Source: Candidatus Enterosoma sp. (GTDB taxonomy: Bacteria; Bacillota_I; Bacilli_A; RFN20; CAG-288). From it: a stretch of DNA of 48,867 nt. Position numbers and translations under genes: made by a program. How positions within the stretch are numbered: the stretch's first letter is position 1; each line of letters starts with the position of its first letter. Below the pieces are notes generated by a model, which was not told the DNA's origin, did not search any database, and saw only the letters and a program-made list of their open reading frames with translations. This document shows positions 1,424-32,795 of the stretch, one piece after another. Location of the stretch: contig JBNMLQ010000002.1 of assembly GCA_050874925.1 (NCBI GenBank), forward strand, positions 1 to 48,867, in the 5' to 3' direction.

Positions 1424-1484
1424 CTCGTAAAAAATAGTCGTATGAATATGCCGGTCTGTGTGCATCAATGAAGGAGGAAACCCA

Positions 1485-2303: not shown

Positions 2304-2307
2304 AATC

Positions 2308-2334
2308 AGCAGCTCGCAAGAGCTGCTTTTTTTG
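2308..2334 (+). terminator. rho-independent terminator
   Basis: AGCAGCTC-GCAA-GAGCTGCT hairpin followed by a T7 run. Confidence 0.8.
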
Positions 2335-2349
2335 TGCTATACTTCTCTT

Positions 2350-2901
2350 ATGAATGAACAAGGATACTTGGAGACCAAAGACGTCTATCTTCGTCATTTC
2401 AAGGAAAAAGACCTTGATGACATTTTTGCATACTCCTCCATTCCGGGAGTCGGAGAGAATGCTGGTTGGAAACATCACATCTCAAAAGATGTCACCAAAG
2501 CCGTATTATACAATTATTTCCTTATCCATGATGGCTGCATTGCCATCGTAAGCAAGAAGAACAAACATGTCATAGGTTCCATATCCATGACAAAAGACAG
2601 TTCCCTATGCCAGGATTTCAAGGGGATGAAATGCTTTGAACTAGGATATGTCCTGCATCCAAGATATCAGAACAAGGGTATCGTCAGCGATGTCGTAAAG
2701 ACACTTACGGAATACGTGTTTTCCCATAGGAAGGCCGATGTCCTTCTCATCTCCTGTCACAAGGACAACATCGCATCCAGGAAAGTCGCCATCAAAAACG
2801 GTTTTGTCAGGTACAAAATCCTGGAAGACATCTATTTTCCTGCCATCGATGAGTTCCGCACGCAATACTGCTATTTTCTCGAGAACAATCAAAAAAGATG
2901 A
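2350..2901 (+). CDS. GNAT family N-acetyltransferase (RimJ/RimL-like)
   Basis: Q-N-K-G-I acetyl-CoA loop (RYQNKGIVSDV) and overall GNAT pattern. Start moved to the first ATG after the upstream terminator; no clear SD. Confidence 0.7.
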   Translation: MNEQGYLETKDVYLRHFKEKDLDDIFAYSSIPGVGENAGWKHHISKDVTKAVLYNYFLIHDGCIAIVSKKNKHVIGSISMTKDSSLCQDFKGMKCFELGYVLHPRYQNKGIVSDVVKTLTEYVFSHRKADVLLISCHKDNIASRKVAIKNGFVRYKILEDIYFPAIDEFRTQYCYFLENNQKR

Positions 2902-2913
2902 CCCGTCTTTAGA

Positions 2914-3408
2914 TCATCTTTCGTTTTTATGGAACTTTTCGTTCATCTTCCTTACAACTTGAAGGGGAACAAGGCTGCTGATATCCTGGTTTTGGAAGAA
3001 GAGTTCCTTGATAGCAGAAGAAGAGATGAAGGCCTGATTCTTCTTAGCCATGAGATAGACCATATCAATATCAGGCTCCAGATATTCGTTGACCTCATGG
3101 AGCTGATATTCTGCCTCATAATCCGTCACGGCTCTCAAGCCACGGATAAGTGCCTGGGCATGAAGCTTCTTGGCTTCCTTGACGACCAGATGCTGGGTGG
3201 ATACGATTTCAAATCCTTCATATCCCTGAAAGACTTCCTTGGCCATATCCACACGCTCTTCGCATGTGAACATATAATGTCCGGCCTTCATCGGGTTATC
3301 AGCGATCATGATATAGACTTTATCAAAGAAATTCTTTGCCCTCAACGCAACATCGACATGTCCGTTGGTGAGAGGATCAAACGATCCAGGATATACTGCA
3401 ATCTTCAT
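2914..3408 (-). CDS. coaD: phosphopantetheine adenylyltransferase
   Basis: MKIAVYPGSFDPLTNGHVDV N-terminus (nucleotidyltransferase H-x-G-H motif); about 160 aa. Confidence 0.93.
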   Translation of the reverse strand: MKIAVYPGSFDPLTNGHVDVALRAKNFFDKVYIMIADNPMKAGHYMFTCEERVDMAKEVFQGYEGFEIVSTQHLVVKEAKKLHAQALIRGLRAVTDYEAEYQLHEVNEYLEPDIDMVYLMAKKNQAFISSSAIKELFFQNQDISSLVPLQVVRKMNEKFHKNER

Positions 3409-3952: not shown

Positions 3953-4307
3953 ACTTTTTGATTTCCTTTGTCAACCTGTCCGAAATCATGACAAGGATAT
4001 GTCTCAGCTTCTGATACCTATCAAGATATTCTGCCATGAGAGGATTCCTTCTTAGTTCCTCATCCTTTTGATTCGATAGGACAAGATAATCATGTTTCTT
4101 CTTCTCGTCTGTTTCCTTTTCGGCCATGGCAATATAAGAGTCCCGTTCTTCCGAAAGGGAGACAAGCCTGTCATCCTGATAGATTTTCTCTGACAGCTTC
4201 TTCATCTCCTGATAAATTCTGGAGTTTTTGAAGGATTCCAGGAACTGGAATTCCTCATTCATGAATTCGATTTCTTCCATAGCAAAATAATTATACGGAT
4301 ATTGCAT
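3945..4307 (-). CDS. YlbF/YmcA-like helical protein
   Basis: Small helical, charged protein directly upstream of rsmD-coaD (B. subtilis ylbF position). The internal ATG at 4280 is an alternative start. Confidence 0.6.
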   Translation of the reverse strand: MQYPYNYFAMEEIEFMNEEFQFLESFKNSRIYQEMKKLSEKIYQDDRLVSLSEERDSYIAMAEKETDEKKKHDYLVLSNQKDEELRRNPLMAEYLDRYQKLRHILVMISDRLTKEIKKYD

Positions 4308-15747: not shown

Positions 15748-16452
15748 ATGTCCAGAATCATTCTTGTCGGCGGAGGTTCATCTTCCGGTAAATCCTATAT
15801 CACGACCAGCGTCATCAAAAATCTCAACACCGATGAAATCACCAGGATTTCCATCGATGATTTCTATAAAGACCAGAGCAATATCTCCATGGAAGAAAGA
15901 ATCAAGGTCAACTATGACCATCCCAAGGCATTTGACTGGAAAATGATGAGAAAGCAGATTTCGGATCTGAAGAATGACATCCCCATCGACAAGCCCATCT
16001 ATGATTTCACCATCCACAATCGAAGTGACAAGACAGAACACATCGTTCCAAAGAAGCTTGTCATCGTCGAAGGCATCATGGCCCTTGTCGACAAACAATT
16101 GAGAGAGCTCGGCGATCTGAAGATTTTCATCACGGCAACACCGGAAGTCCGATTCCTGCGTCGCTTCATCCGTGACCATACGGAAAGAAAGAGAAGCTAC
16201 GAAAACATCGTCAGCCAATACATCACCACCGTCGCTCCGATGTATGAAGAAATCGTCAAACCGTCAAGCAACTATGCCGATCTCATCATCAACAACGATG
16301 GAGCCATCGCAAACCTTGCCATGGATGTCCTCTCCTGCGTCTTCAAGGATCAGCTGGAAAAGGCAACCGATGGAAAACCGCACATCAACAAGCCCTCCAA
16401 TGAATTCTCTGAAGAAGTCCTTAACAGGGTCTTCCAGAGCGCGACAAAATAA
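15748..16452 (+). CDS. udk: uridine kinase
   Basis: P-loop GGGSSSGKS and the NYDHPKAFD motif. Confidence 0.9.
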   Translation: MSRIILVGGGSSSGKSYITTSVIKNLNTDEITRISIDDFYKDQSNISMEERIKVNYDHPKAFDWKMMRKQISDLKNDIPIDKPIYDFTIHNRSDKTEHIVPKKLVIVEGIMALVDKQLRELGDLKIFITATPEVRFLRRFIRDHTERKRSYENIVSQYITTVAPMYEEIVKPSSNYADLIINNDGAIANLAMDVLSCVFKDQLEKATDGKPHINKPSNEFSEEVLNRVFQSATK

Positions 16453-16473
16453 GGTTCCGACCAATAATATAGC

Positions 16474-17043
16474 TCATTTGATTCTCTTGACGATTCTACG
16501 ATGCACATAAGCCGTATCATTGGGCTGAAGTTCAGTCTCAACAAGGTCAGCAAGGACTCCGGAAGAGAAACGGAATTCATCCGAGAACTTCAGATACTTG
16601 TTGACGAATTTCTTGCTTTCGATGAGACGCAAGGCAATATAGGCACGGCAAAGATAATAATAGGTGCTCTTTTGAGGCTCCCAGATTCTTGCCGTGATAT
16701 AAGTGTAAAACCTGCTATAGCTTCTATCGGCCCTGTTGGAAAGATAGGCTTCATATTCATGGGCAAGATTCTTTGCATACTGAAGATTCAGTTCTTCATG
16801 GAAGAGATCCGCTTTCTCTGACAGGATCTTGTCATATTCTTCTTCCAAAGGTTTCAGTTGCTTGAGGATTTCCCTCTTCTGGGCACGGGCTTTCTTCAGC
16901 TTGTTCTCCAGGATTTCGTCTTCCTTCTCGCCAAGAGCATCGTCATACCGTTCTATCCTGGCCTTGACCAATCTAAGTTTCTTCTTCAAATCACTGATCT
17001 CACCCTTCATCTGAGGAAGGGACTTCTGGTTATTCTCATCCAT
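16474..17043 (-). CDS. hypothetical coiled-coil protein
   Basis: Long ORF with good coding appearance. N-terminal half is heptad-like and K/E-rich. No motif recognised. Confidence 0.6.
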   Translation of the reverse strand: MDENNQKSLPQMKGEISDLKKKLRLVKARIERYDDALGEKEDEILENKLKKARAQKREILKQLKPLEEEYDKILSEKADLFHEELNLQYAKNLAHEYEAYLSNRADRSYSRFYTYITARIWEPQKSTYYYLCRAYIALRLIESKKFVNKYLKFSDEFRFSSGVLADLVETELQPNDTAYVHRRIVKRIK

Positions 17044-17110
17044 GTTTCTTTTCTCCTGACATCATTGTAAGAGAAATCCATCCATTATGGAACCGAAATG
17101 AAAAAAATCG

Positions 17111-17139
17111 TTGACTATTGATATCAAGTAGAGTAGAAT
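17111..17139 (+). promoter_or_regulatory. promoter of tRNA-Ala(GGC)
   Basis: TTGACT, 17-nt spacer, TAGAAT, about 32 nt upstream of the tRNA. Confidence 0.6.
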
Positions 17140-17171
17140 TATCTTCGCTTGAAAGCTCAAGCAAAACTTTT

Positions 17172-17247
17172 GGGGCTGTAGCTCAATTGGGAGAGCGCCT
17201 CCATGGCATGGAGGAGGTCGAGGGTTCGATCCCCTTCAGCTCCACCA
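17172..17247 (+). tRNA. tRNA-Ala (anticodon GGC)
   Basis: 76-nt cloverleaf, G3:U70 identity pair, anticodon loop ATGGCAT, encoded CCA. Confidence 0.92.
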
Positions 17248-17346
17248 AAAATGATTGGAGATGAACCACCTTTAGAGTTCCATAAAGCAAATGGCTTCCT
17301 AGGTTTGGTTCTTGAACGGCATCCTAAGTAATTGGGGTGCCTTTTT
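17248..17346 (+). repeat. tRNA-Ala trailer plus terminator module, copy A
   Basis: Including the last 7 nt of the tRNA, it matches the reverse complement of 30761-30866 with about 8 mismatches in about 107 nt. Ends in the hairpin GGCATCC/GGGTGCC plus T5 (17318-17346). Confidence 0.85.
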
Positions 17347-17580: not shown

Positions 17581-17637
17581 AATAAACGGACAATATACGG
17601 ACATTTTATTGAATATATGTCCGTTTAATGATAAAAT
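17581..17637 (+). promoter_or_regulatory. promoter/operator module of AlbA_2 paralog 1 (repeat copy 1)
   Basis: TTGAAT (17609-17614), 17-nt spacer, TGnTAAAAT (-10 at 17632-17637). Perfect inverted repeat ACGGACAT (17597-17604) / ATGTCCGT (17617-17624) brackets the -35. A third direct copy ACGGACAA lies at 17586-17593. Confidence 0.6.
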
Positions 17638-17664: not shown

Positions 17665-18993
17665 ATGGATAAGTTTATTGAGTCTGATGGAGTTGAGTTG
17701 AAGGAGAAATTCAATGATAAATTCGTCAAGGAAGTTGTGGCGTTTTTGAACACCAATGGAGGGAAAATTTTTATTGGAGTCACTGATGATGGTTTTGCTG
17801 TTGGAGTAAAAAATATTGACGAGACAATGAGAAAAATATCCGATGTTCTTACTACCCAGATTGAACCGCAGCCAGAAGATGAAGTAGATATCAGGGTTGT
17901 TTTTGCGGAAGGTAAAAGCGTTTTAGCTATCGATATTAAAAAAGGAAAGTTTTCACTCTATTGCATCAAAAAATATGGATATTCAGCCTCTGGTTGCCTT
18001 GTTCGCGTAGGAACGACATGTAGAGAAATGACCGATCAGCAAATTCATAGGCGTTATCAGCAACGTTTCTTTAACTCCGATATTTTGTCGTCATCGACGA
18101 GCTCTAGGCAGGATTTAACGTTCAATGTTCTGAGACCGCTTTATGTGGAAAAAGGTTTTATCCTTCATGATGAAACGTTTGCTAAAAATCTAGGGTTGCT
18201 CACAGATGAGGGAAAATACAATGTTATGGCGGAGCTATTGTCTGATCAGAATCGCTTTTCATTCATTTTCGTCAAATTCGCAGGTGAGGATAAATCGGCA
18301 ATTTCCCAGAGAAGCGATTATGGCCGGAAATCAATACTTTTCGGATATGAGCAGATGATGAATCGAATTTCAGCGGAAAACATATGCCTATCGGACACCA
18401 CGGTTAGACCTAGAGTAGACACATATTGTTACGACTATGACAGCGTGAACGAAGCGGTCGTCAACGCAATTGTTCACAATGATTGGAGCATTAGCGAACC
18501 TCAGGTGTCTTTCTTTTCTAATCGTATTGAGATTTTGTCACATGGTGGGCTTCCTTATAATCTTAGCCTAGAAGACTTTTTTGCCGGAGTAAGCCGACCT
18601 AGGAACGAAAAGTTAATGCGCATTTTTTCTGACCTTGACATCGTTGACCATACAGGTCACGGAATTCCGATTATTGTTAAAAGATATGGCAAGAATGCCT
18701 TTGAAATCACAGATTCGCATATTATCGTCACAATACCTTTCGATGAGAAAGTAGCTGTATCGTTGAATGCCCATTTAAATGTCGGTACAAATGGCGGCTT
18801 AAGGGCCAAAGACACAGCCTTTACCGTTCTTAGCGAAATTCGCAAGAACCCATCGTCAACGGCGGAAGAAATCGCCTGTAATATTGGGAAAAGCAAAAAA
18901 ACCGTTGAGCGCTATTTTTCTGCTCTTCAAAAGGAAGGCGCGATTCTTCGTGTCGGTTCCAAGAAGAACGGACATTGGAAAGTTGTTAAGTAA
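17665..18993 (+). CDS. AlbA_2 (Schlafen-like) / HATPase_c_4 / winged-HTH protein, paralog 1 (COG2865 type)
   Basis: N-terminus ESDGVELKEKF..FLNTNGGKIFIGV, central VNAIVHNDWS..ILSHGGLP..RNEKLMRIF..HTGHGIP, C-terminal wHTH ..TVERYFSALQKEGAILRVGSKKNGHWKVV. Confidence 0.85.
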   Translation: MDKFIESDGVELKEKFNDKFVKEVVAFLNTNGGKIFIGVTDDGFAVGVKNIDETMRKISDVLTTQIEPQPEDEVDIRVVFAEGKSVLAIDIKKGKFSLYCIKKYGYSASGCLVRVGTTCREMTDQQIHRRYQQRFFNSDILSSSTSSRQDLTFNVLRPLYVEKGFILHDETFAKNLGLLTDEGKYNVMAELLSDQNRFSFIFVKFAGEDKSAISQRSDYGRKSILFGYEQMMNRISAENICLSDTTVRPRVDTYCYDYDSVNEAVVNAIVHNDWSISEPQVSFFSNRIEILSHGGLPYNLSLEDFFAGVSRPRNEKLMRIFSDLDIVDHTGHGIPIIVKRYGKNAFEITDSHIIVTIPFDEKVAVSLNAHLNVGTNGGLRAKDTAFTVLSEIRKNPSSTAEEIACNIGKSKKTVERYFSALQKEGAILRVGSKKNGHWKVVK

Positions 18994-19024
18994 AAGGCCA
19001 GCAATTCAATTCTATCGACGTTTC

Positions 19025-19121
19025 CTCCACCAAAAAGATTTCCAAGCGAACCGGTATACGTTAATTGCAACGGATATCTAGGTGTCGTGTTCAAATGGCG
19101 TCCTTAACGGGACGTTTTTTT
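19025..19121 (+). repeat. degenerate copy C of the tRNA-Ala 3' end plus trailer plus terminator module
   Basis: CTCCACCAAAAAGATT versus CTCCACCAAAAATGATT at 17238-17254. Further collinear islands (GAACC, CTAGGT, GTTC, GGC.TCCT). Ends in the hairpin CGTCC/GGACG plus T7 (19099-19121). Confidence 0.55.
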
Positions 19122-19128
19122 GTTTGTT

Positions 19129-19164
19129 TACAATGACATTTACAGTGACTTTTACAGTGACATT
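19129..19164 (+). repeat. 3 x 12-bp tandem repeat (TACAATGACATT TACAGTGACTTT TACAGTGACATT)
   Basis: Read directly from the sequence. Shares the core GACATTT with the repeats upstream of paralogs 1 and 3. Confidence 0.85.
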
Positions 19165-19170
19165 CTAACT

Positions 19171-19226
19171 AATAAACGGACAATATAGGGCCATTTTATA
19201 GAAAATGTCCGTTTAACGATAGAATA
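19171..19226 (+). repeat. second, decayed copy of the paralog-1 promoter/operator module
   Basis: Aligns with 17581-17637 at about 49 of 57 positions with a 1-nt deletion. The central ACGGACAT site is mutated to AGGGCCAT. The -10 becomes TAGAAT. Confidence 0.8.
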
Positions 19227-19399
19227 ATCTTGTTATCTTTTCCATCGCTGACAACACGGATAAAGCTGCATACTTCTTCAAACGTATCATCTCCACAGGC
19301 GATATCATCTATTATTCTTCCAACCTGTCTGAAGCCATAGCAAAGACCATTGTCATTCCCAATGATGGAAGCAAGACCAAGTATGACGAAAGCATCCAA
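19196..19399 (-). pseudogene. possible truncated gene remnant (67-codon ORF, TTG start, 3' end runs into the repeat copy)
   Basis: ORF reads like real protein (VILGLASIIGNDNGLCYGFRQVGRIIDD) but has no RBS or ATG, and its last codons are supplied by the 19171-19226 repeat. Confidence 0.25.
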
Positions 19400-19493
19400 T
19401 GGTAGATGTTTCTTCGTATGACTCTATACTCAACTCTCGTTTTGATTTATAATCTATAGGCAATCAAAGAATTGCAAAAAGAGGTACTGTTTT

Positions 19494-20399
19494 ATGAAAA
19501 TCAATCTGGAAGTAAAGAAAGCATTGGAAGAAGGAAGACCTGTCGTAGCACTGGAATCCACCATCATTTCCCATGGCATGCCATATCCGAAGAACGTCGA
19601 ATGCGCTCTCGGTGTCGAGAAGGTCATCCGTGACAATGGTGCCATCCCTGCCACCATCGGTATCATCGAAGGAGAACCGATTGTCGGTATGACACCGGAA
19701 GAAATCGAACTCCTCGGCAAGACCAAGGGCATCGAAAAGGTCTCCAGGAGAGACATTCCCGTCATCTGTGCAATGAAGAAGTGGGGTGCAACGACCGTTG
19801 CAACCACCATGATCTTTGCCAAGATGGCCGGCATCGAATTCTTCGTCACCGGCGGTATCGGCGGAGCTCATAGAAAAGCCAACGTCACCTTTGATATCTC
19901 TGCCGATCTCGATGAACTTGGAAAGACCGATGTCACTGTCATCTGTGCAGGTCCGAAGGCCATCCTTGACCTTGGACTTACCCTCGAATATCTCGAGACC
20001 AAGGGTGTTCCGGTCCTCGGATACAATACCGACAAGCTTCCGGCCTTCTTTACCAGAACAAGCGATTTCAAGGTCGACTACAACGTCAAGACTCCTCTTG
20101 ACATCGCCAAGATTGTCAAAGCCAAGAGAGACTACCATCTTGAAGGTGGTGTCCTTGTCACCAATCCGATTCCGGAAGAATATTCTCTTCCTGCCGAATA
20201 CATCAATGCCGAAATCGACAAGGCTATCGCTGAAATGGAAGCCAAAGGCATCAGAGGAAAGGATGAAACCCCGTTCCTTCTTGCCAAGATCGTCGAACTT
20301 ACCGGCGGAAAGAGTCTGGAAGCCAACATCCACCTTATCATGAACAATGCCAAACTTGGTGCTCAGGCTGCCGTCGAATACGCCAAGCTCAGAAAGTAA
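19494..20399 (+). CDS. psuG: pseudouridine-5'-phosphate glycosidase
   Basis: VALESTIISHGMPYPKN and the remainder of the IndA/PsuG pattern; 301 aa. Confidence 0.92.
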   Translation: MKINLEVKKALEEGRPVVALESTIISHGMPYPKNVECALGVEKVIRDNGAIPATIGIIEGEPIVGMTPEEIELLGKTKGIEKVSRRDIPVICAMKKWGATTVATTMIFAKMAGIEFFVTGGIGGAHRKANVTFDISADLDELGKTDVTVICAGPKAILDLGLTLEYLETKGVPVLGYNTDKLPAFFTRTSDFKVDYNVKTPLDIAKIVKAKRDYHLEGGVLVTNPIPEEYSLPAEYINAEIDKAIAEMEAKGIRGKDETPFLLAKIVELTGGKSLEANIHLIMNNAKLGAQAAVEYAKLRK

Positions 20400-20400
20400 C

Positions 20401-21291
20401 ATGTCTGATACAATGCTCCTCTTTGGAGGCTCCAACATCGATTACATCGGAACAAGCGATGAGAAACTGATCGACGGAGTTTCCAATATCGGAAGCGTCA
20501 GCATCTCCTTCGGCGGAGTGATGAGAAACATCGCCGAGAATCTTGCCAGGCTTGGAAACCACATCGATTTCGTGACTGCCATCGGAAAGGATTCCCTTGG
20601 CATCAAGCTGAAAGAAGCTTTGCTATCCTTGGGAATCCATATCCATTCTCCAGAGAGCGACCTCATGACAGGTTCCTATCTTGCCATCAATGACTCGAAC
20701 CATGACATGGCCTTGGCTCTATGTGACAACAGGATCATCGAGACCATCAATCCGGATTACATCAAATCCTTGGATGCCTTGATAAAAGGACATGAATATC
20801 TTTCCCTGGATGCCAATCTCTCAAAGGAAGCCATCGACTTTCTCTTTAAGAATTACCCACAGAAGAAATTCATCGTCGAAGCCATCAGCCCGGAAAAGGT
20901 CGTCAAATTCAAAGACCATCTTTCAAAAATCTACCTGATCAAAGCAAACAGCCATGAAGCTGAGGCCTTGACAGGCAAATCGCTTTCTCCCATCACCATG
21001 ACCGAGGAGCTGTTGAAGAAAGGTGTAAAAAACGTCGTCCTCTCTTCCGGAGGAGATGACATCCATATCGGCTATGACCAGAACATCATCGAACCGGTAC
21101 AGGTAAAGCGGGAAACCGAATTTGTCAACACCACCGGCTGTGGAGATGCCTTGACCAGTGGTATCATCGATTATTTCCTCAGAGGCTATTCCCTGAAGGA
21201 ATCCGTAGAGTTCGGTCAGCTTCTATCCAAGCTGACACTGATGTCACCACACGCAACGACAGAAGAAGTAAAAAAATATAGGCATGACTAA
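20401..21291 (+). CDS. psuK: pseudouridine kinase (PfkB family)
   Basis: PfkB motifs (GGSNIDY.., NTTGCGDALTSG). ATG 1 nt after the psuG stop. Confidence 0.85.
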   Translation: MSDTMLLFGGSNIDYIGTSDEKLIDGVSNIGSVSISFGGVMRNIAENLARLGNHIDFVTAIGKDSLGIKLKEALLSLGIHIHSPESDLMTGSYLAINDSNHDMALALCDNRIIETINPDYIKSLDALIKGHEYLSLDANLSKEAIDFLFKNYPQKKFIVEAISPEKVVKFKDHLSKIYLIKANSHEAEALTGKSLSPITMTEELLKKGVKNVVLSSGGDDIHIGYDQNIIEPVQVKRETEFVNTTGCGDALTSGIIDYFLRGYSLKESVEFGQLLSKLTLMSPHATTEEVKKYRHD

Positions 21292-21310
21292 GGTCATGCC
21301 TATTTCTTTT
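21279..21310. terminator. bidirectional terminator between psuK and the lipoprotein gene
   Basis: TAGGCATGAC-TAAG-GTCATGCCTA hairpin flanked by an A-run and a T-run. Overlaps the psuK stop codon. Confidence 0.75.
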
Positions 21311-21313
21311 GAT
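21296..21313 (+). repeat. 18-bp exact direct repeat, copy 1 (ATGCCTATTTCTTTTGAT)
   Basis: Identical 18-mer at 21928-21945. Confidence 0.9.
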
Positions 21314-21327
21314 GGAAACAGTTCCGT

Positions 21328-21909
21328 CTATTTCAATGTATAGGTCAGAAGAAGGTCTTCCGTATATTGGAAATAGTGATGCAGCTCAAGTCCGTTTTCA
21401 GTGACTCCGAAAGTGATGGGATCGCCATAGGACAAATGATAATATCCGTTCTTCTTTACCTTTTCATAGACTTCCTTGGAAGTATACTTTGCCTGGAATG
21501 TCAGGTCAAAACCCTCCGGAGTCTTGTCAGACTGGTATTCCAACCATTTTACCTGATTATCGACGACGCGATGATCGAGGTCGACGAAAACACGTATTTC
21601 TTCAGCAAGGAATCCGGCAAGGCCGACAAAGTCATAATACTGATAATCCTGTGAATAGGGACTTTGGCAGACCTTGATGGTTTTATCCTCGATACCATAA
21701 TACCTATCGACATAAAGGGTATCCCCGCTATCATTCTGATAGATGAAGACTTCGGCATAGGTCGAAGAATATCCCGCGGTGACCTTCGTTTTCCCATCTG
21801 TGGAAACAATCTCCAATCTGCTGACTTCAATCGTCCCTCCTGTCGGCGCACCACAGGATGAAAGCAATGCAAGAGTAGAAGCAATCAACGCAACTTTACT
21901 GATTTTCAT
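21328..21909 (-). CDS. hypothetical lipoprotein
   Basis: Signal peptide with lipobox LLSSC (MKISKVALIASTLALLSSCG). AGGAGG RBS. Confidence 0.75.
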   Translation of the reverse strand: MKISKVALIASTLALLSSCGAPTGGTIEVSRLEIVSTDGKTKVTAGYSSTYAEVFIYQNDSGDTLYVDRYYGIEDKTIKVCQSPYSQDYQYYDFVGLAGFLAEEIRVFVDLDHRVVDNQVKWLEYQSDKTPEGFDLTFQAKYTSKEVYEKVKKNGYYHLSYGDPITFGVTENGLELHHYFQYTEDLLLTYTLK

Positions 21910-21927
21910 ATATTTCCTCCTTTATAT

Positions 21928-21945
21928 ATGCCTATTTCTTTTGAT
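21928..21945 (+). repeat. 18-bp exact direct repeat, copy 2 (overlaps the stop of the aldo/keto reductase gene)
   Basis: Identical to 21296-21313. Confidence 0.9.
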
Positions 21946-22936
21946 CCAACAGAACGACACCTTCCTTAGGATTCTCAAGGATGGCTCCGACAATCGGATG
22001 TGGAACGTAGGGTTCTTCAAGATATGCGACCTCTTCCTTCGTCAGCTTGACATCCAAGGAAGCAACGGCATCATCGACATAGATAGTCTTGGTCGCTCCG
22101 ATGATCGGAGCACCGATTCCCTTGAAATACTGCCATGCCAGAGCAATCTGGGACATCTTGCATCCATGCTTCAGGGAAAGCTCCTTGACTCTCTTGACGA
22201 TTTCCATATCATACTCTTCCATGCGATCATATTTGCCACATAAAGTCTTGTCCGTCTTTCTTCGAAGGGAATCATACATCCATGTGTCTCTGGTAAGATG
22301 GCCTCCTGCGAGTGGACTATAGGGCATCAAGAAGACGTCCTTTTTCTTACAGAGAGGTATCATCTCCCTTTCATCTTCCCTATATAGGAGATTGTAATGA
22401 TTTTCCATGGCTGAGAACTGTGTCCATCCATGTTCCTTTGCCACCATCTGCATGTCATAGAACTGATATCCATACATGGCCGAGGCTCCGATGGCCCTGA
22501 CCTTTCCTGATCTGACAAGATCATGAAGAGCTTCCATCGTTTCCTCGATGGGTGTCTCATAGTCAAAGCGATGGATGATATAGAGATCAAGATGGCTTGT
22601 GCCCAGTCTCCTCAGGGTTCCTTCAATCTCCCTGTTGATAGCCTCTTTTTTCAGCCTTCCAGGATTGAAATAGACTTTGGAGGCGATGACGACCTTGTCT
22701 CTTGCAACATTCTTCTTCAGAGCCCTTCCAAGATATTCTTCGCTTGTACCCTTGGAGTAACCATTTGCCGTATCGAAGAAATTGATACCCAAGCTTAGGG
22801 CATGTCTTATCACTTCCTCGCTTTTTTCTTCGTCCAGGGTCCAGTCATGCATGGTGCCAGCTTTTCCAAAGCTCATGCATCCTAAGCAGACCTTGGATAC
22901 TTCAATACCAGTCTTTCCAAGTTCTGTATATTCCAT
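21932..22936 (-). CDS. aldo/keto reductase
   Basis: MEYTELGKTGIEVSKVCLGCMSFG N-terminus and AKR blocks. Start trimmed to the ATG behind AAAGGAGAAAGG. Confidence 0.9.
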   Translation of the reverse strand: MEYTELGKTGIEVSKVCLGCMSFGKAGTMHDWTLDEEKSEEVIRHALSLGINFFDTANGYSKGTSEEYLGRALKKNVARDKVVIASKVYFNPGRLKKEAINREIEGTLRRLGTSHLDLYIIHRFDYETPIEETMEALHDLVRSGKVRAIGASAMYGYQFYDMQMVAKEHGWTQFSAMENHYNLLYREDEREMIPLCKKKDVFLMPYSPLAGGHLTRDTWMYDSLRRKTDKTLCGKYDRMEEYDMEIVKRVKELSLKHGCKMSQIALAWQYFKGIGAPIIGATKTIYVDDAVASLDVKLTKEEVAYLEEPYVPHPIVGAILENPKEGVVLLDQKK

Positions 22937-26856: not shown

Positions 26857-27094
26857 ATGATATGAAAGCAAAGCTTTTCCCTCATCAACGAACCATGCCT
26901 ACCCTCAAGGATCAGCTTATTTTTCAAAGATAATTACTACAAATTCCTACGACAGCCGAAGAAAAAGTAGCTTTCTATCGACATATTTCAAAACCAACTG
27001 TCAAAGTTTTATTCCGTGAAACCTGATAGCTATACCACATGAAATATCAAAGTTCCCAATCAGTCCTAAGATAATCAGGCTTGCCTGAATACGT

Positions 27095-27413
27095 CTAAAG
27101 ATTCTTGTAATAATCCGTGATATAGTCTTTTACGACAAAAGAGCCATCATTGATCTCAATAAGAGGTCATTCAGCTGCTTGAGAAGAGACAGCATGATAG
27201 GCTCTTCCTATTTTTTCCTTGTTGAAGTAACAAGGCATATCATAACAAACTCATAATATCCTTCATACATTTCCGATATCTCCTTGTTCAGTTCACGTAT
27301 CTTTTCATCGCTATCTAGGATATCGATACCGGTCAAAGGTTCTCCTGTCTGGGTGTTGCTTATTCAAATCGGTCCTTGCATGAAGTCTGATTTAAATTTA
27401 ACTGTCTTTTCAT
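27095..27413 (-). pseudogene. decayed gene remnants (frameshifted fragments)
   Basis: An 18-codon ORF with an RBS (27360-27413) continues in another frame as NTQTGEPLTGIDILDSDEKIRELNKEISEMYEGYYEF (27208-27363). A further fragment, PLIEINDGSFVVKDYITDYYKNL-stop, lies at 27095-27166. Confidence 0.3.
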
Positions 27414-27459
27414 TTTTCTCCGTATTGATAAAGCAAAAATTTTTATGCCTACAAACGCA

Positions 27460-28827
27460 TCAGTTTCTGTTTTTTTCCATCGGCTTGAATGTAGTCATGA
27501 ATCTTTTCAGCAAAAAAGTGCAGAAATACGGAAATGTATACACTTTATCATCATAACCTATGTTATTTGCTGACAATTTGAAGCCATAGGCAATATCCCT
27601 ATATTTATCCAAGGAAATCAAAGAACGCATCGACTTGGAATTACCGCTTCTTGCTTTTACTTCGATAGGAATCAGGTTTTCCGCAGAACGGATAAAAAAG
27701 TCTTCTTCAAGCGTTGAATCCTCGCGCTTATAATAATACAGCTTATATCCGGCTTTTACCAAAGCCTCACCGACAACATTTTCATAAAGCGCCCCCTTAT
27801 ATACACCGAGATTTTTATTTGCCCGCAAATCATCCTGTGATTCTTCATCCAAAAGCGAAACAAGCAAACCCGTATCCGCAAAGTACAATTTGAATTTGTC
27901 TATATTGCAATTCCCAGACAATGGCAGTTCCGGTGACTCTAAACAGTAACAAGCATTTACGATACCTGCATCAACCAACCATTCTGCACATCCGCGATAA
28001 TCCTTAAAACGGGCACCTTTTTCAATTTTTGATAGCTGGAATTTTTTATTTTCCTTTGCAAGTTGTGCCGGAATGCTATTGAAAACATTCAATATTCTCG
28101 TTTGATCGACTCCTTCTGCATATTTACGGATATCTTCTTTATAATCGGCAATGAGTTGATGTTGCGTATCCAAAGAACCCTCAAATGTCCCTTTTTGAAT
28201 ATAGTCTTTTACTACTGCAGGCATCCCACCTAAAATCACATAATCAAGAAATATTCCATGGAACAATGAAAATTCAAATTCATTGAACGGATTGAGATTC
28301 TTCATATGTGAAAGCATATTGTCAATCACATCCTCGTCATAACCCTTGGCCCATAAGAATTCTTCAAAATCCATCGACTGCATTTCATAATCGGTCTTAT
28401 TGCCAACGCTATTGCTTTCGATTCTTTTGTAATTGAGACCTAGCATGGAACCACTGCAAATCACATCGAATCTCCCGTCTTCATTAAAAAATTTAAGTGA
28501 TGTCGCTATTTCCGGGAACTCCGTTATCTCATCAAAGAATATAAGAGTATTTCCATCTATGAATTTCTTTGATGGATCCAGCAACGAAATGTTCTTGACA
28601 ACAGCCTTTGCTCCATAACCATCTATCGTTATTTTCTTGTATTTCTCTTCCTTTACAAAATTGATTTCGACAAAACTCTTATATCCAGCAATTTTCGCAA
28701 AATGACGAATAGATTCCGTTTTCCCTATCTGACGGCACCCTCTTACAATAAGAGGCTTCCTACGAGGGTCATTTTTCCAATCTAACAAAAAAGTATCTAT
28801 TTTTCGTCTTAAATAATCGTTTGACAT
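27460..28827 (-). CDS. AAA_14 / DUF4143 ATPase (COG1373 type)
   Basis: Walker A GCRQIGKT, Walker B LIFFDEI, C-terminal ..IPIEVKARSGNSK.. block typical of DUF4143. Start trimmed to MSNDYL behind AGGAG. Confidence 0.85.
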   Translation of the reverse strand: MSNDYLRRKIDTFLLDWKNDPRRKPLIVRGCRQIGKTESIRHFAKIAGYKSFVEINFVKEEKYKKITIDGYGAKAVVKNISLLDPSKKFIDGNTLIFFDEITEFPEIATSLKFFNEDGRFDVICSGSMLGLNYKRIESNSVGNKTDYEMQSMDFEEFLWAKGYDEDVIDNMLSHMKNLNPFNEFEFSLFHGIFLDYVILGGMPAVVKDYIQKGTFEGSLDTQHQLIADYKEDIRKYAEGVDQTRILNVFNSIPAQLAKENKKFQLSKIEKGARFKDYRGCAEWLVDAGIVNACYCLESPELPLSGNCNIDKFKLYFADTGLLVSLLDEESQDDLRANKNLGVYKGALYENVVGEALVKAGYKLYYYKREDSTLEEDFFIRSAENLIPIEVKARSGNSKSMRSLISLDKYRDIAYGFKLSANNIGYDDKVYTFPYFCTFLLKRFMTTFKPMEKNRN

Positions 28828-28849
28828 AGCAGTCTCCTGTTTTGCTTCC

Positions 28850-28878
28850 ATTATAGCAGTCATGAAAATGAGTCGCAA
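28850..28878 (-). promoter_or_regulatory. promoter of the AAA_14/DUF4143 gene
   Basis: On the minus strand: TTGCGA, 17-nt spacer, TATAAT. Confidence 0.55.
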
Positions 28879-29109
28879 GATTATTCAACACTTTTTTGAG
28901 CCACTTTTGACATATCATTTACACTTTTTCTGGCGAGTTTTGCATTGTCAATTACAAAAATCCTTTTTCTTATATAACAAAAGCAAGTTAAAGATTTTAT
29001 GACAAAAGAAGAAAATAAACCAAGTTGGCTAATATTGTAAACAGCATGATAAAATTCCAGGCAAACCTACACTAATGTTCCGATAAGTTTCATTATCGTT
29101 ACCTGTTAG

Positions 29110-30462
29110 CTATCTAATGACCTTCCAATACCCTTTTTTGTTCGTTCCGACTCTTTCTATGAAACCTTTCTCTTCCAAAGAGATGAAGACTCTTGAAACA
29201 GTTCTTCTTGATATGTTGAGGTTCACAACCAAGGCGCCATAAGAAACATTCGGATTATTGATTAGCTCTAGCAAGACTCTTTTCTCATTATCCGTCAACT
29301 CTGTATCCGATATCTTATCGCAATCTTCATTGATCTTTTCGACATCATTTTTGCCGAAGTTAATTTGTGATGTGACTTTCTCATTAAATGGAATGATGAC
29401 ATTGACGTAAGTATCATGCACGTCAAAGACACCTTTTCCATATTTTTCAATAATCTTAGGGATACCATGGCCGGTATGTTCCACTATTCCAAGCTTCAGG
29501 AAAATACGCATAAGAACATTATTTCGGGGATGACTCACACCATTAAAAAAATCATCGATGGTTATTTCTTTTGGAATGCCACCATGTGATGTGATTTCCA
29601 GCCTATCGTCATAGAAAGAAACCAACGGTTCCGAAATCGTCCAATCATTATGAACAAAAGCATTGACCAAAGCCTCATTGACTGCATCCATATCATAAAG
29701 ATACTCATCAACACGAGGCCTTACTGTTGTGTCAGTTACACAAATATTTTCAGCGATAAGCCTGTCCTTAATCCTTTGCAATCCTAATATTATGCTTTGA
29801 TTGCCATAATCATTTCTTTGAGAGATTGATGCTTTTGTGTTTCCTTTAAACTTAACAAAAATTATCGGAATCATATTTCTATCGGCTAATATTTCAGCCA
29901 TTAGATTGTATGTTCCATCTTCTCTTTTCAAATTAAAATTACTGCAAAAAGTCGATTCATTTATATGATACCCCTTGCTTACAAGCAAGACTTTCAACAT
30001 ATCGAAAGATAAAGGCGCATAATGGGATGGTGATTTAAGTATATAATCATCATCCACAAAATTCATTTTGTATCTATATTCGATTTCAGCAGTCATCATT
30101 TCCTTACACGTGGTGCCAATTCGAACAAGACACCCCTTTGATGAAAAACCATATTTTTTAATACAATAAAGAGGCTTCAAACCACGTTTTACGGAGATTT
30201 TAAGAACCGTCTTCCCCTCATCTATTAACAATGATATAGAAATTTCGTTTGAAGGTTCCGGCTCAATTTGAGACGTGATGATATCTGATATCTTCTTTTG
30301 TATGTCATCCATGCTGCCGTGCTGAAGACCGATAACGCCACCATTATCATCTATTCCAATTAGAATATCTCCACCATTACGATTCAAAAAAGAAACAATA
30401 TCCCTAACAACGGTATCAGAATATTTTTCTTTCAATTCCAAATTTTCAGATTCGATATACAT
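29110..30462 (-). CDS. AlbA_2 (Schlafen-like) / HATPase_c_4 / winged-HTH protein, paralog 2
   Basis: Collinear with paralog 1 at roughly half of positions by eye (ESENLELKEKY..FLNRNGGDILIGI..YCIKKYGFSSKGCLVRIGTTC..VNAFVHNDWTISEP..HTGHGIP..KKGYWKVI). Confidence 0.85.
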   Translation of the reverse strand: MYIESENLELKEKYSDTVVRDIVSFLNRNGGDILIGIDDNGGVIGLQHGSMDDIQKKISDIITSQIEPEPSNEISISLLIDEGKTVLKISVKRGLKPLYCIKKYGFSSKGCLVRIGTTCKEMMTAEIEYRYKMNFVDDDYILKSPSHYAPLSFDMLKVLLVSKGYHINESTFCSNFNLKREDGTYNLMAEILADRNMIPIIFVKFKGNTKASISQRNDYGNQSIILGLQRIKDRLIAENICVTDTTVRPRVDEYLYDMDAVNEALVNAFVHNDWTISEPLVSFYDDRLEITSHGGIPKEITIDDFFNGVSHPRNNVLMRIFLKLGIVEHTGHGIPKIIEKYGKGVFDVHDTYVNVIIPFNEKVTSQINFGKNDVEKINEDCDKISDTELTDNEKRVLLELINNPNVSYGALVVNLNISRRTVSRVFISLEEKGFIERVGTNKKGYWKVIR

Positions 30463-30499
30463 GTCAGCAAGTCCCCCCTAAATTAATATTATTATAAAT

Positions 30500-30655
30500 T
30501 ATTTTTGCCATTTACTAAAGATTTTTGCCATCGGCATGGGATTTTTGCCAAATCCATTGAGATTTTTGCCACATATGCCGGGATTTTTGCCAAATCCATT
30601 GAGATTTTTGCCACATATGCTGGGATTTTTGCCATTTGACAAGGGATTTTTGCCA
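30500..30655 (-). repeat. array of 8 phased repeats, core GATTTTTGCCA (TGGCAAAAATC in gene sense), period 20-21 bp
   Basis: Core starts at 30501, 30521, 30541, 30562, 30583, 30604, 30625 and 30646. Includes a 42-bp unit duplicated with one mismatch (30561-30602 and 30603-30644). Lies directly upstream of the TATAAT of paralog 2. Confidence 0.9.
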
Positions 30656-30760
30656 TTATGATTAGATAAAGAGATCAAATATATAAAATAAGATTTAACC
30701 CTTTGTTATAACGAAGGCATATTTCTGTTGTTTACTAATACATAAAAGCTATTTTTTATC

Positions 30761-30860
30761 AAAAAAGACATCCCAATTACTTAGGATGCCGTTCAAGAAC
30801 CAAACCTAGGAAACTATTTGCGTTATGGAACCCTAAGGGTGGTTCATCTCCAATCATTTT
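30761..30860 (-). repeat. tRNA-Ala trailer plus terminator module, copy B (inverted relative to copy A)
   Basis: Its reverse complement matches 17248-17346 with few mismatches, including the terminator hairpin and T-run. Confidence 0.85.
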
Positions 30861-30888
30861 TGATGGAGCCGAGCCAACCGGGAGCGAA
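30861..30888 (-). repeat. partial copy of the 3' 23 nt of tRNA-Ala(CGC) (att-like direct repeat)
   Basis: Minus-strand TTCGCTCCCGGTTGGCTC[GGCTC]CATCA versus the tRNA 3' end TTCGATCCCGGTTGGCTCCACCA: 21 of 23 positions plus a 5-nt internal duplication. Same orientation as the tRNA at 32720-32795. Confidence 0.8.
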
Positions 30889-30926
30889 AACTAATTTGAT
30901 GAATGGCAGCATTGCTAGCTAACGCT

Positions 30927-32264
30927 CTATTTTAGGATTTCCCAATAGCCATACTGATTCTTTCCAATTCGTTTAGCAAATCCTTTTTTTGTTAACGATG
31001 TGAGTATTCTTTGAATGGTTTTGTCCCCTCTTCCAAGTGCTTTTTCAAGTTCTTCTTTCCGAATTTTGGGGTTTGCCTTAAGCATCTGATAAACGATTGC
31101 TTCGTTATCTGAAAGAATTTTTAGATCTGCATGGTCAACCGCTTGAACAAATGATTGGACATTCGGCCGAATAAAATCAAAATAAAACCCATAAGCAGTA
31201 TTACGAAATTCCCATTCTACCTTTGCTTCCTGGCAAAGTTGATTCATTCTGCGAAAACCCGTGCCTGATTTTTCGACATCTTTGCACCGGAACAGAATGC
31301 CTAGCATCAATGGATTCCGCTTAATCGATGCAATATTTTTGCTAATAAAATCATATGGAGTAAGATCATCCGGAAACGATCCTGGGTTATAAATTGTTAC
31401 TTTATGTGGATGTATATCGATTTCTATCTCTGGATTGCTTCTGTAATCCGCATGTGCAAAAGCATTAATGACCATCTCATGAATAGCTCTTTCAGGAATT
31501 TCAGGTGTTTCTAGTCTTTTGCGGGAATTGAAGTCGACACGTGTATTTATATGACTTAAAATATAAACTTCTGCTTCATGAATCAATTGATAAATGTTTC
31601 CGTGAAATTCTTTTAAATCGAGGAAAGTGATTTTCTGATCCGTTGCAAAGCAGGCGGCTTTTAAAGAAACAGGATTACCTTTCCCAAAAATAGCATATCC
31701 TGCATTGTTAATTGTTTTATCGAAACATACTTCAAGAGTTGTAAGCAATTCCTCTTTGTCATAGGCTTTCATATCTAAGCGACCGCAAGATATGGATTCT
31801 TGATAGAAATCTAATAGCGTGGAATCGTCAATGTCATCAATAGTGTGCTTTCCTTCGCTTTCCCAACTAAGTGAATAGACAGCTTTTTTGACTAATCTGA
31901 CGAGTTCGTCACGACTCATTTTTCTATTTTGAGTTCCTACTCTGGTAAGAAACTTTCCATAGGCAGAATATGGGAATTGTCGTCCAGAAAAAGAAATTTT
32001 AATCACTGCTTTATTTTCAATGGGAATGACTTCGATAGTCGGGGTGATTTTCGGTTCAATATCACGCATGATGGATTCTCCTAAATCTTTTAAGGTTGAA
32101 TCACTGACAATTTGGCCGATTGCATTACCGTTATCTTTCACGCCGAAATAAACAGTTCCATATCCGTGTTTGTTCAAAATGGAAACCATGGATTCAATTC
32201 CTTCTCTTTTTTCACCAGTAGACTCTTTAAATTCGGTTATTTCTGATTCTTTGCCAAAGTTCAT
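30927..32264 (-). CDS. AlbA_2 (Schlafen-like) / HATPase_c_4 / winged-HTH protein, paralog 3 (divergent)
   Basis: ESEITEFKES..HGYGTVYFGVKDNG, central INAFAHADY..IYNPGSF..KRNPLM..KSGTGF, C-terminal wHTH ..TIQRILTSLTKKGFAKRIGKNQYGYWEIL. Confidence 0.85.
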   Translation of the reverse strand: MNFGKESEITEFKESTGEKREGIESMVSILNKHGYGTVYFGVKDNGNAIGQIVSDSTLKDLGESIMRDIEPKITPTIEVIPIENKAVIKISFSGRQFPYSAYGKFLTRVGTQNRKMSRDELVRLVKKAVYSLSWESEGKHTIDDIDDSTLLDFYQESISCGRLDMKAYDKEELLTTLEVCFDKTINNAGYAIFGKGNPVSLKAACFATDQKITFLDLKEFHGNIYQLIHEAEVYILSHINTRVDFNSRKRLETPEIPERAIHEMVINAFAHADYRSNPEIEIDIHPHKVTIYNPGSFPDDLTPYDFISKNIASIKRNPLMLGILFRCKDVEKSGTGFRRMNQLCQEAKVEWEFRNTAYGFYFDFIRPNVQSFVQAVDHADLKILSDNEAIVYQMLKANPKIRKEELEKALGRGDKTIQRILTSLTKKGFAKRIGKNQYGYWEILK

Positions 32265-32293
32265 ATTTGTGCCTCCTATTTAAAAATTATATA

Positions 32294-32341
32294 AAATGTC
32301 CAAGCAAATGTCCAAGCAAATGTCCAGGCAAATGTCCAGGC
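32294..32341 (-). repeat. 4 x 12-bp perfect-period tandem repeat (gene sense GC(C/T)TGGACATTT) overlapping the promoter of paralog 3
   Basis: Plus strand reads AAATGTCCAAGC x2 then AAATGTCCAGGC x2. Each unit carries TGGACA. The copy at 32309-32314 lies 17 nt from a TATAAT (32286-32291, minus strand). Confidence 0.9.
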
Positions 32342-32719
32342 GCTTTTATAAATTATTTCTATATAACAATCAAAAAAAGGCAAGCATATAGCATTTGACA
32401 AAGCCATTGTTTGTTGCGAATTCGTTAACAAAAAGTCCGCTCCTTCTGAATTCCTTCACATATTCAAGCCTGTCCTGGTCCGTGGATTTATTCATATGAT
32501 TCTGTTAATGAGAGAATATCAGCCCGCCATGGCATTGCTACTGAAAAGCTGGGTGTTCTGAATTGACATACAATCAATTTTAGGGCACAAAAAAAGCGGA
32601 CCGCCATGGATCCACTAATATTGGTTAGTGCTTAAGAATTTCACTAGCATCTAGCCGTATGCCGAAGCAGCCATTAATCAGGTAGACCTGAAGAACAGCA
32701 GTTCGACCACCATTCAATT

Positions 32720-32795
32720 TGGTGGAGCCAACCGGGATCGAACCGGCGACCTTCTCGTTGCGAACGAGACGCTCTCCCAACTGAGCTATGGCCCC
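32720..32795 (-). tRNA. tRNA-Ala (anticodon CGC)
   Basis: 76-nt cloverleaf on the minus strand, G3:U70, anticodon loop TTCGCAA, encoded CCA. Confidence 0.92.

Follow-up and report, generated by a model that had tools for sequence, protein, structure and literature searches.

The islet at 30861-32719 in the DNA analysed here is probably one recombinase-less unit within an accretion array of large serine recombinase (LSR) elements at the CCA end of a tRNA-Ala(CGC) gene. The whole stretch, referred to as the window, comprises 48,867 nt of contig JBNMLQ010000002.1 from the metagenome-assembled genome (MAG) GCA_050874925.1 of a Candidatus Enterosoma sp.; the MAG consists of 272 contigs and is 92% complete with 5.6% contamination. 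Genomes of same-genus relatives are denoted by G-codes (C marks a contig), gut-metagenome runs by X-codes and retrieved contigs by L-codes. The islet keeps both of its junctions (32718-32729 and 30859-30870), one cargo gene and no recombinase. Between the tRNA gene and a fragment resembling its 3' end lie only a trailer with its terminator, a 41-codon open reading frame (ORF), four 12-nt repeats and a COG2865-type gene, paralog 3. The features of the islet and its right border are as follows.

32720..32795, minus strand: tRNA-Ala(CGC) (ARAGORN and Rfam); its 3' part would be the B arm of the attachment site, with the T-loop GTTC 24 nt from the CCA end
32718..32729, minus strand: core of the left junction, GGCTCCACCAAA (attL), with the crossover presumably within TCCACCA
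32625..32726, minus strand: tail B, STKLNGGRTAVLQVYLINGCFGIRLDASEILKH and stop, a relic with 33 open codons when read as TCC ACC AAA; putative P' arm with GAAC at +16, homologous to the tail of the G005:C30 LSR
32586..32624, minus strand: terminator hairpin and T-run 3' of tail B, read from the sequence
32553-32570, minus strand: motif TATGTCAATTCAGAACAC in the spacer upstream of the 41-codon ORF
32370..32495, minus strand: 41-codon ORF without a family match in Pfam
32294..32341, minus strand: four 12-nt tandem repeats GCCTGGACATTT overlapping the paralog 3 promoter (repeat search)
30927..32264, minus strand: paralog 3, COG2865-type, 445 amino acids, with SLFN AlbA_2, HATPase_c_4 and winged helix-turn-helix (wHTH) domains (Pfam); the sole islet cargo
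30861..30890, minus strand: tRNA-like fragment, read as the P arm of an LSR attP, with a T-loop-like TTTCG 29 nt from the CCA end (from the sequence)
30777..30860, minus strand: tail A, in frame with the P arm, KMIGDEPPLGFHNANSFLGLVLERHPK and stop; the C-terminal tail of an LSR from an older unit, and its putative P' arm
30762..30776, minus strand: tail-A terminator, 3' part only, with the T-run and the 3' strand of the hairpin; the 5' strand falls within the last tail-A codons

An earlier note on this DNA had described the islet as the product of site-specific integration at the tRNA 3' end, and its description of the sequence holds. The partial tRNA copy at 30888-30861 (minus strand) reads TTCGCTCCCGGTTGGCTCGGCTCCATCA, that is, TTCGCTCCCGGTTGGCTC followed by GGCTC and CATCA; relative to tRNA-Ala(CGC) it carries these five extra bases and a C>T change in CCACCA, and it is identical to the resident tRNA at 21 of 23 positions after the 5 nt are taken out. 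Over its distal 18 nt it differs from the tRNA at one position, and a second match of this kind arose in none of 100 shuffled sequences; the recurrence of the tRNA end is real. The trailer behind the fragment is indeed about 92% like that of the other tRNA-Ala: a repeat search aligned 30872-30762 with 17236-17346, the end and trailer of tRNA-Ala(GGC), at 92% identity over 111 nt. Pfam scans agree that the cargo is one regulator-like gene without a recombinase. The window contains no match to PF00239 or PF00589, all matches of this genome being on other contigs; the whole MAG has three tyrosine integrases (PF00589; contigs C71, C24 and C183). The lack of a recombinase gene in the window therefore makes the islet at most a derivative of an LSR element and no autonomous member. 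The note had named absence of the repeat from independent assemblies as grounds for refutation; instead, Logan contigs showed the islet structure in at least 10 gut-metagenome runs, drawn from four or more studies, with between zero and a few differences, and one independent co-assembly contained it at 99.4% identity.

The G+C content is ~35% over roughly 26900-32400, compared with ~45% in the flanks. An Rfam scan of the window returned only tRNAs and a flavin mononucleotide (FMN) riboswitch, and no known RNA family covered the trailers. The 41-codon ORF was considered as a transposase remnant, a candidate dropped after Pfam gave no match. The motif TATGTCAATTCAGAACAC, or a close variant, follows tail terminators at three loci of different species (the window, L026 and L078; the latter two from G018 and G049) and occurs once in the window's own genome.

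Trailers as recombinase coding tails

A search with the islet DNA led to contig C126 of the closest relative, G006, in which an intact LSR gene runs via GGTTCGCTTACATCTTCGTTTTGTCCACCA into a stretch 95% identical to 30793-30867 of the window. Near-identical orthologues of the LSR, collected by a protein database search with its C-terminus, have ...GGSLT(S/T)SFCPP in common and then continue into six different tails, one of which is tail A. The orthologues switch exactly at CCA CCA, which shows the trailers to be C-terminal coding tails of LSRs and places the crossover in the core formed by the tRNA CCA end; the exact crossover position would lie inside TCCACCA.

The reading frames tell the same story. 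The eight copies of tail A, located 3' of tRNA-Ala(GGC), (CGC) and (TGC), of a transfer-messenger RNA (tmRNA) and of an LSR gene, and behind the window fragment, are all open for 29-30 codons in the frame CCA CCA AAA ATG, and seven of the eight use the same stop. Their variable columns are distributed 11/3/13 over codon positions 1/2/3, and the other frames contain 2-5 stops. Tail C encodes a peptide homologous to that of tail A, PPKRFPSEPVYVNCNGYLGVVFKWRP and stop, and the nine copies of tail B, at tRNA, tmRNA, LSR and relic junctions, hold the frame TCC ACC AAA and a common peptide pattern. On this comparative evidence, trailers A, B and C all derive from the C-terminal coding ends of LSR genes. 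The "old trailer" of the earlier note, thought to be the original tRNA trailer displaced by the insertion, is thus such a tail, and the same holds for its "replacement trailer".

Four trailer types occur 3' of tRNA-Ala(CGC) across species: A in G006 and G016, B in G003, G009 and G018, C in G007, and D in G002 and G013. Trailer D may be part of a different system, since inspection by eye gave no consistent frame and GAAC is missing at +16. With tails behind the (GGC), (CGC) and (TGC) genes, all three tRNA-Ala genes of the genome therefore bear LSR tails. At tRNA-Ala(TGC) (genome contig C177:2120-2293), the tail-A variant precedes a copy of the paralog-1 operator that has no paralog gene with it.

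Two further observations concern these tails. The junction TCCACCA + (A/G/T)GT(C/G)GCATA(A/G)GT.GAGAAC is conserved, occurring about once per genome in ~25 same-genus genomes (for example at G021:C7:58980), and falls outside tail families A-C; it may represent a fourth tail family or the trailer native to a single tRNA-Ala or tmRNA locus. In the window, the tail-A copies at 17236-17346 and 30762-30872 form 111-nt inverted repeats around the 13.4 kb between two facing tRNA-Ala genes, and recombination between them would invert this segment.

Spacing of the attachment arms

The motif GTTC lies 24 nt from the CCA end in six of six tRNA and tmRNA targets and 29-30 nt from it in six of six intact LSR genes; GAAC, which is GTTC on the other strand, is found at +16 in nine of ten tails. 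The window fragment has the 29-nt spacing of the intact LSR genes. For the LI integrase, the motif bound by the zinc-ribbon domain is 5 bp nearer the centre in the attB half-site than in attP (Rutherford et al. 2013, PMC3783163). The spacing of the fragment and this 5-bp offset between attP and attB therefore make the "5-nt duplication" what would be expected of an attP arm. If the centre is placed inside TCCACCA, the predicted attP arms are symmetric and the tRNA arm is 5 bp shorter.

Translated in the frame of tail A, the fragment reads FSLPVGSAPS, with a TAG directly upstream. Aligned by hand and without gaps to the P arm of the G016 LSR (GSTPIGLAPP), it agrees at 5 of 10 residues and 18 of 30 nt. 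These features suggest that the fragment is an LSR P arm and not a tRNA end that was displaced. What the earlier note saw as a partial tRNA copy with a 5-nt duplication is sound as sequence, and it is the interpretation that changes, as both the spacing and the gap-free alignment fit the attP arm of a recombinase gene.

An isolated arm of the P type (GTTCG 29 nt from CCA) with ~60 nt of tail C was also seen in inverted orientation in G006:C26 (L140, ~3970-4040, opposite strand), 3 kb behind tRNA-Ala(GGC).

A twin islet and its empty site

The window contains a second islet of the same kind at tRNA-Ala(GGC), with the following features.

17172..17331, plus strand: tRNA-Ala(GGC) followed by tail A, PPKMIGDEPPLEFHKANGFLGLVLERHPK and stop
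17665..18993, plus strand: paralog 1, COG2865 (Pfam), the cargo of the twin islet
18994..19107, plus strand: LSR 3' relic KASNSILSTFPPPKR..., leading via the core CTCCACCAAAAA into tail C (..FPSEPVYVNCNGYLGVVFKWRP and stop); right junction of the twin islet

The order at this locus is tRNA, trailer A, a repeat-bearing promoter, paralog 1, a degenerate tRNA-like stretch (19010-19036) and trailer C with its terminator. Contig C26 of G006, a sister species, aligns to the window at 96% identity over 16222-17256 and at 92% over 19025-21962, with a 16-nt overlap, and so represents the exact empty site of the twin islet. The 1,784-nt insert in the window, comprising tail A, the promoter, paralog 1 and the arm, is bounded by the 12-nt repeat CTCCACCAAAAA. 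By hand count, only 16 of 23 positions in the arm before the second core are like the tRNA, and the arm translates as KASNSILSTFPPPK, compared with ASNGNNGGSLTSSFCPPK in the G006 LSR. The low match and the LSR-like translation therefore indicate that the twin arm arrived with the insert as an LSR 3' relic and is no displaced tRNA end.

An allele without the islet was found at tRNA-Ala(CGC) itself. The earlier note had proposed a search for an empty site in which this tRNA is directly followed by the trailer beginning at 30860, and run X10 contains it at about half depth. There, a 603-nt unitig covering UDG and the tRNA (depth 8.9) splits into a branch with tail B and the islet (4.43) and a branch in which the tRNA is joined to tail A (4.8). 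In the islet-free branch, a 49-nt unitig, the final 30 nt of the tRNA are joined to AATGATTGGAGATGAACCA, with which tail A exactly begins. The two branch depths do not add up to the depth over paralog 2; the islet-free strain may therefore have further differences downstream. The arrangement of tRNA-Ala(CGC) and a type-A trailer was likewise present in G006, G016 and UMGS237. Alternative branches in runs X1 and X5, with tail C and a G016-type tail A, probably stem from other species. A joint from 30858 to 32718 in X5 was considered as an empty site and dropped: it lies on a 63-nt unitig with a G016-type tail A and is probably from another species, because its depth is inconsistent with the flank.

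Taken together, the idea of a textbook integration at the tRNA 3' end survives in that site-specific junctions bound the islet. The class of integration differs, as the short 12-nt core points to LSR accretion.

Complete recombinase elements in relatives

Elements with an intact LSR occur at the same kind of target. The one in G016:C54 spans ~7.3 kb and consists of a tmRNA 3' end joined to tail A, an Xre-type gene, a DpnII-type restriction-modification (R-M) system, an AAA_13 ATPase, a 162-aa ORF, an LSR with Resolvase, Recombinase and Zn_ribbon_recom domains, and a P arm joined to a plain trailer. Metagenome contig L106 carries a tmRNA joined to tail C, an NgoFVII R-M system and an LSR of the G006:C126 clade. 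The genome of the window has an element of this design at tRNA-Ser(TGA) (C33:10142-16294), where the tRNA and a 36-codon tail are followed ~6 kb on by an LSR gene that ends at the contig end in the tRNA-Ser-like GTTCGGAAAAATACACTACTGCTCCGCCA; the rule of 29 versus 24 nt for the arms holds here as well. The nearest NCBIfam models of the relatives' LSRs are CcrB, CcrA and XisF. In such complete elements, the tail behind the tRNA would be attL and the LSR with a short foreign ending attR, and the LSR would regain its long tail upon excision.

Arrays of single-gene units and their cargo

The flank formed by UDG and tRNA-Ala(CGC) is conserved in same-genus relatives. Beyond the tRNA the sequence is hypervariable, with breaks in many contigs. 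One layout of tail, operator repeats, gene and arm, with the stop codon of the gene 0-130 nt from the arm, is common to at least five single-gene units (the two in the window, at CGC and GGC, and those of G007, G024 and G013). The G007 unit consists of tail C, a paralog-1-like gene, a fragment and tail A; the G024 unit of a paralog-3-like gene, a fragment and tail B; and the G013 unit has an AAA_14/DUF4143 gene with a tRNA-like stretch at the far end, which differs from its tRNA at 3 of 23 nt. Some junctions, in G007, G013, G005 and G011, have arms of the tRNA type or longer pieces of tmRNA; the arrays result from events of more than one kind.

In relatives, the tRNA-Ala(CGC) site also holds R-M systems, an ATPase-subtilase pair, a Schlafen-type helicase and prophage genes, and is thus a hot spot, often with defence-type genes. 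Contig L078 (G049:C167, reverse strand 1467-3255) carries a pair of complete tRNA-Ala(CGC) genes at a distance of 1.7 kb, separated by one gene in the opposite orientation; tail A stands behind the first, a plain terminator behind the second.

Downstream of the islet, the low-G+C patch of the window continues with these features.

30516..30655, minus strand: 21-nt-period repeat array in the promoter of paralog 2 (repeat search), assigned to the older unit
29110..30462, minus strand: COG2865 paralog 2 (Pfam), cargo behind tail A, assigned to the older unit
27460..28878, minus strand: AAA_14/DUF4143 ATPase, PADLOC candidate defence family PDC-S01 (E = 2e-153)

Homologues of the AAA_14/DUF4143 gene lie directly 3' of tRNA-Ala(CGC) in G009, G012 and G013. 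Paralogs 1-3 score above the Pfam cut-offs for AlbA_2, HATPase_c_4 and a TrmB/MarR-type wHTH. The genome has ~13 COG2865 paralogs, most of them away from tRNAs, so the family is not linked to tRNAs as such. Each paralog has its own distinct short tandem or inverted promoter repeat (for instance AATGATAGAATA, seven times on C77), as found at 17581-17637, 30516-30655 and 32294-32341 in the window and on contigs C1, C36, C42, C77, C97, C145 and C160. This suggests autoregulation via the wHTH domain, and the 12-nt repeats are presumed to be the operator for the wHTH of paralog 3 itself. Repeat arrays without a gene were seen at 19129-19225, the array at 19129-19164 matching the operator of the G024 paralog-3-like gene. 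On contig C6 (16190-22527), a TetR-like gene and a 581-aa gene separate two identical tRNA-His genes that are 2.9 kb apart, and two tandem COG2865 paralogs with near-identical promoters follow 3' of the second tRNA; junctions of the tRNA-Ala type were not seen at these tRNA-His genes.

Origin of the islet and alternative explanations

In the interpretation we favour, the attP of an LSR would lie within the last ~40 codons of the recombinase gene, which would read outward through a tRNA-like P arm, the core TCCACCA and a tail of 27-35 codons doubling as the P' arm. Integration at the 3' end of tRNA-Ala or tmRNA would place the tail directly behind the RNA gene (attL) and the LSR body at the far end (attR). 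In the window, the joint of the tRNA and tail B would be attL and the 30-nt fragment at 30890-30861 the P arm, and tail A behind the fragment would be the leftover of an earlier element, of which paralog 2 would be the surviving cargo. The islet would thereby amount to two junctions and one self-regulated COG2865 gene, much like a cis-mobilizable element (CIME). Its recombinase-less state would have come about through decay in place or through movement in trans; deletion in place would need end points beside the arm in several independent units, and a cassette mobilised in trans would explain the regular layout.

Several observations weigh against this interpretation. The fragment (21/23 without the 5 nt) is closer to its tRNA than the P arm of any intact LSR gene, the fragments at the equivalent junctions of G007 and G013 show the tRNA-type 24-nt spacing, and G005:C30 holds a tmRNA fragment of at least 45 nt; the spacing in the former two and the fragment in the latter indicate that some scars in the arrays are not P arms. 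Furthermore, the fragment is in frame with the downstream tail A and not with tail B, so the two ends of the islet may be no matched attP. The 92%-complete MAG has no LSR for tRNA-Ala sites, its only LSR being at tRNA-Ser, and a scan of metagenome contigs for the circle junction, in which the P arm would meet tail B in the form ...GGCTCGGCTCCATCA joined to AATTGAATGGTGG, gave no match; the metagenome scan for the P arm alone returned only the locus of the window. LSRs are not known to target attL-like sites, and the accretion is observed without an explanation.

The same near-identity of the fragment to the tRNA would be natural for a classic tyrosine-integrase island, in which the attP contained the last ~23 nt of tRNA-Ala, crossover took place in the T-loop, the tRNA end and its trailer were displaced, the integrase was lost and GGCTC arose by later slippage. 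T-loop sites in tRNAs are common targets of tyrosine integrases (PMC12884075), and the fragments of G013 and G007, with their tRNA-type spacing, also stand behind single-gene units. We nevertheless consider this origin unlikely: the three tyrosine integrases of the MAG all lie outside the window, both trailers are LSR coding tails, the spacing in the fragment is the 29 nt seen in LSR P arms, and the twin islet, when compared with its true empty site, repeats only the 12-nt core, its arm being tRNA-like at 16 of 23 positions. Less likely still is that a module of tRNA-Ala, trailer and gene was duplicated or imported beside the resident tRNA and that the inner copy then lost its 5' two-thirds by deletion. 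The paired tRNA-Ala(CGC) genes of G049:C167 and the second tmRNA end of at least 45 nt in G005:C30 would suit such a history. In the window, however, no tRNA similarity extends upstream of the T-loop, where the TAG and the stop of paralog 3 follow within 38 nt; the boundary falls at the same place within a few nt in independent islets; and neither the 5-nt offset nor the gap-free fit to LSR codons is expected of a truncated tRNA. Chance similarity or mis-assembly can be set aside almost entirely. The 272 contigs and 5.6% contamination of the MAG might have raised the latter, which is refuted by the many independent runs and the independent co-assembly, and the shuffles and the real 92% repeat of 111 nt speak against the former.

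A variant of the favoured interpretation, differing from it only in the origin of the recombinase-less state, holds that the islet is a still-mobile, non-autonomous cassette whose circular form would comprise a complete attP and one gene and would be moved in trans by co-resident LSRs. The common layout of the at least five single-gene units, their presence or absence with precision at the core and the P-type spacing kept in the window fragment are in its favour. Set against these are the missing circle junction in metagenome contigs, the lack of a cognate LSR in this genome, the fact that no near-identical cassette was seen at two loci, the B-type arms of some units and the frame of the fragment, which fits tail A and not tail B. 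We regard current mobility as a tentative proposal, less likely than not. The bolder extension of this proposal is about as speculative: integron-like arrays at tRNA-Ala and tmRNA ends in a genus of uncultured gut Bacilli would be driven by LSRs that capture and shuffle recombinase-less single-gene cassettes in trans. The circular cassette would contain a complete attP (a tRNA-mimicking P arm and a recombinase tail) and one self-regulated defence-type gene (COG2865 or AAA_14/DUF4143), orphan tails would offer ready C-termini for the next recombinase, and duplication of GGCTC would turn a tRNA-type B arm into a P arm.

Relation to known systems

The LSRs of the relatives have the Resolvase, Recombinase and Zn_ribbon_recom domains of the large serine integrases (A118/LI, Bxb1, phiC31, SPbeta SprA and CcrAB), which likewise leave a short-core repeat. 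As here, the distal motif of the LI attP lies 5 bp further out than that of attB (PMC3783163). Serine recombinases usually target protein-coding genes (PMC5357655). In contrast, the target here is the CCA end of tRNA-Ala and tmRNA, and the passages on the subject in PMC3218068 call serine-recombinase integration into tRNA genes rare, giving phiRSM1 (at tRNA-Ser) and the actinobacterial integrative and conjugative elements (AICEs) of Mycobacterium (at tRNA-Leu) as examples. These share with the present case a serine recombinase at a tRNA gene. They belong to other lineages, a small filamentous phage and actinobacterial elements, and those passages of PMC3218068 do not report an attP inside the ORF or orphan tails. 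The present system further differs from the large serine integrases in that attP would lie inside the recombinase ORF, so that integration would swap the last 27-35 residues; in that the P arm mimics the tRNA arm; and in that the unit in the window is without a recombinase.

Repeated integration at one site, with decay of the earlier elements in between, resembles the accretion of CIMEs described for ICESt1/ICESt3 of Streptococcus thermophilus and for tandem decayed integrative and mobilizable elements (PMC5704250). Those are larger elements with tyrosine integrases, whereas the units here measure 1.6-1.9 kb, carry one gene and have junctions made up of LSR arms and coding tails. Integron cassette arrays also place serial single-gene units, each with its own recombination site and with defence-type cargo, at one chromosomal site; the likeness is one of layout only, as there is no IntI, attI or attC here and each unit has its own promoter and operator. 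The integrase of myxophage Mx8 (IntP/IntX) reportedly has attP within its own gene, so that integration alters its C-terminus; it is said to be a tyrosine recombinase, with no fossil tails that are reused by later elements.

The present case contributes a lineage of gut Bacilli, the use of tRNA-Ala and tmRNA as a common target, the recombinase-less single-gene units and a genome in which each of the three tRNA-Ala genes is followed by an orphan tail that has kept its reading frame open. The design itself, a serine integrase of gut Bacilli with a putative attP in its own ORF and a tRNA 3' end as target, is little documented, and the 5-bp rule for attP and attB becomes visible at the sequence level in natural sites. 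The conserved "trailers" of tRNA-Ala and tmRNA resemble structured non-coding RNA and are in fact fossil recombinase tails, which makes them a trap for the annotation of small RNAs and genomic islands. They mark a site at which single defence-type genes (COG2865, PDC-S01) and R-M systems are exchanged between strains. If the cassettes were indeed mobile in trans, this would be a cassette-array system based on a serine recombinase, and its compact attachment sites in universal RNA genes could serve genome engineering.

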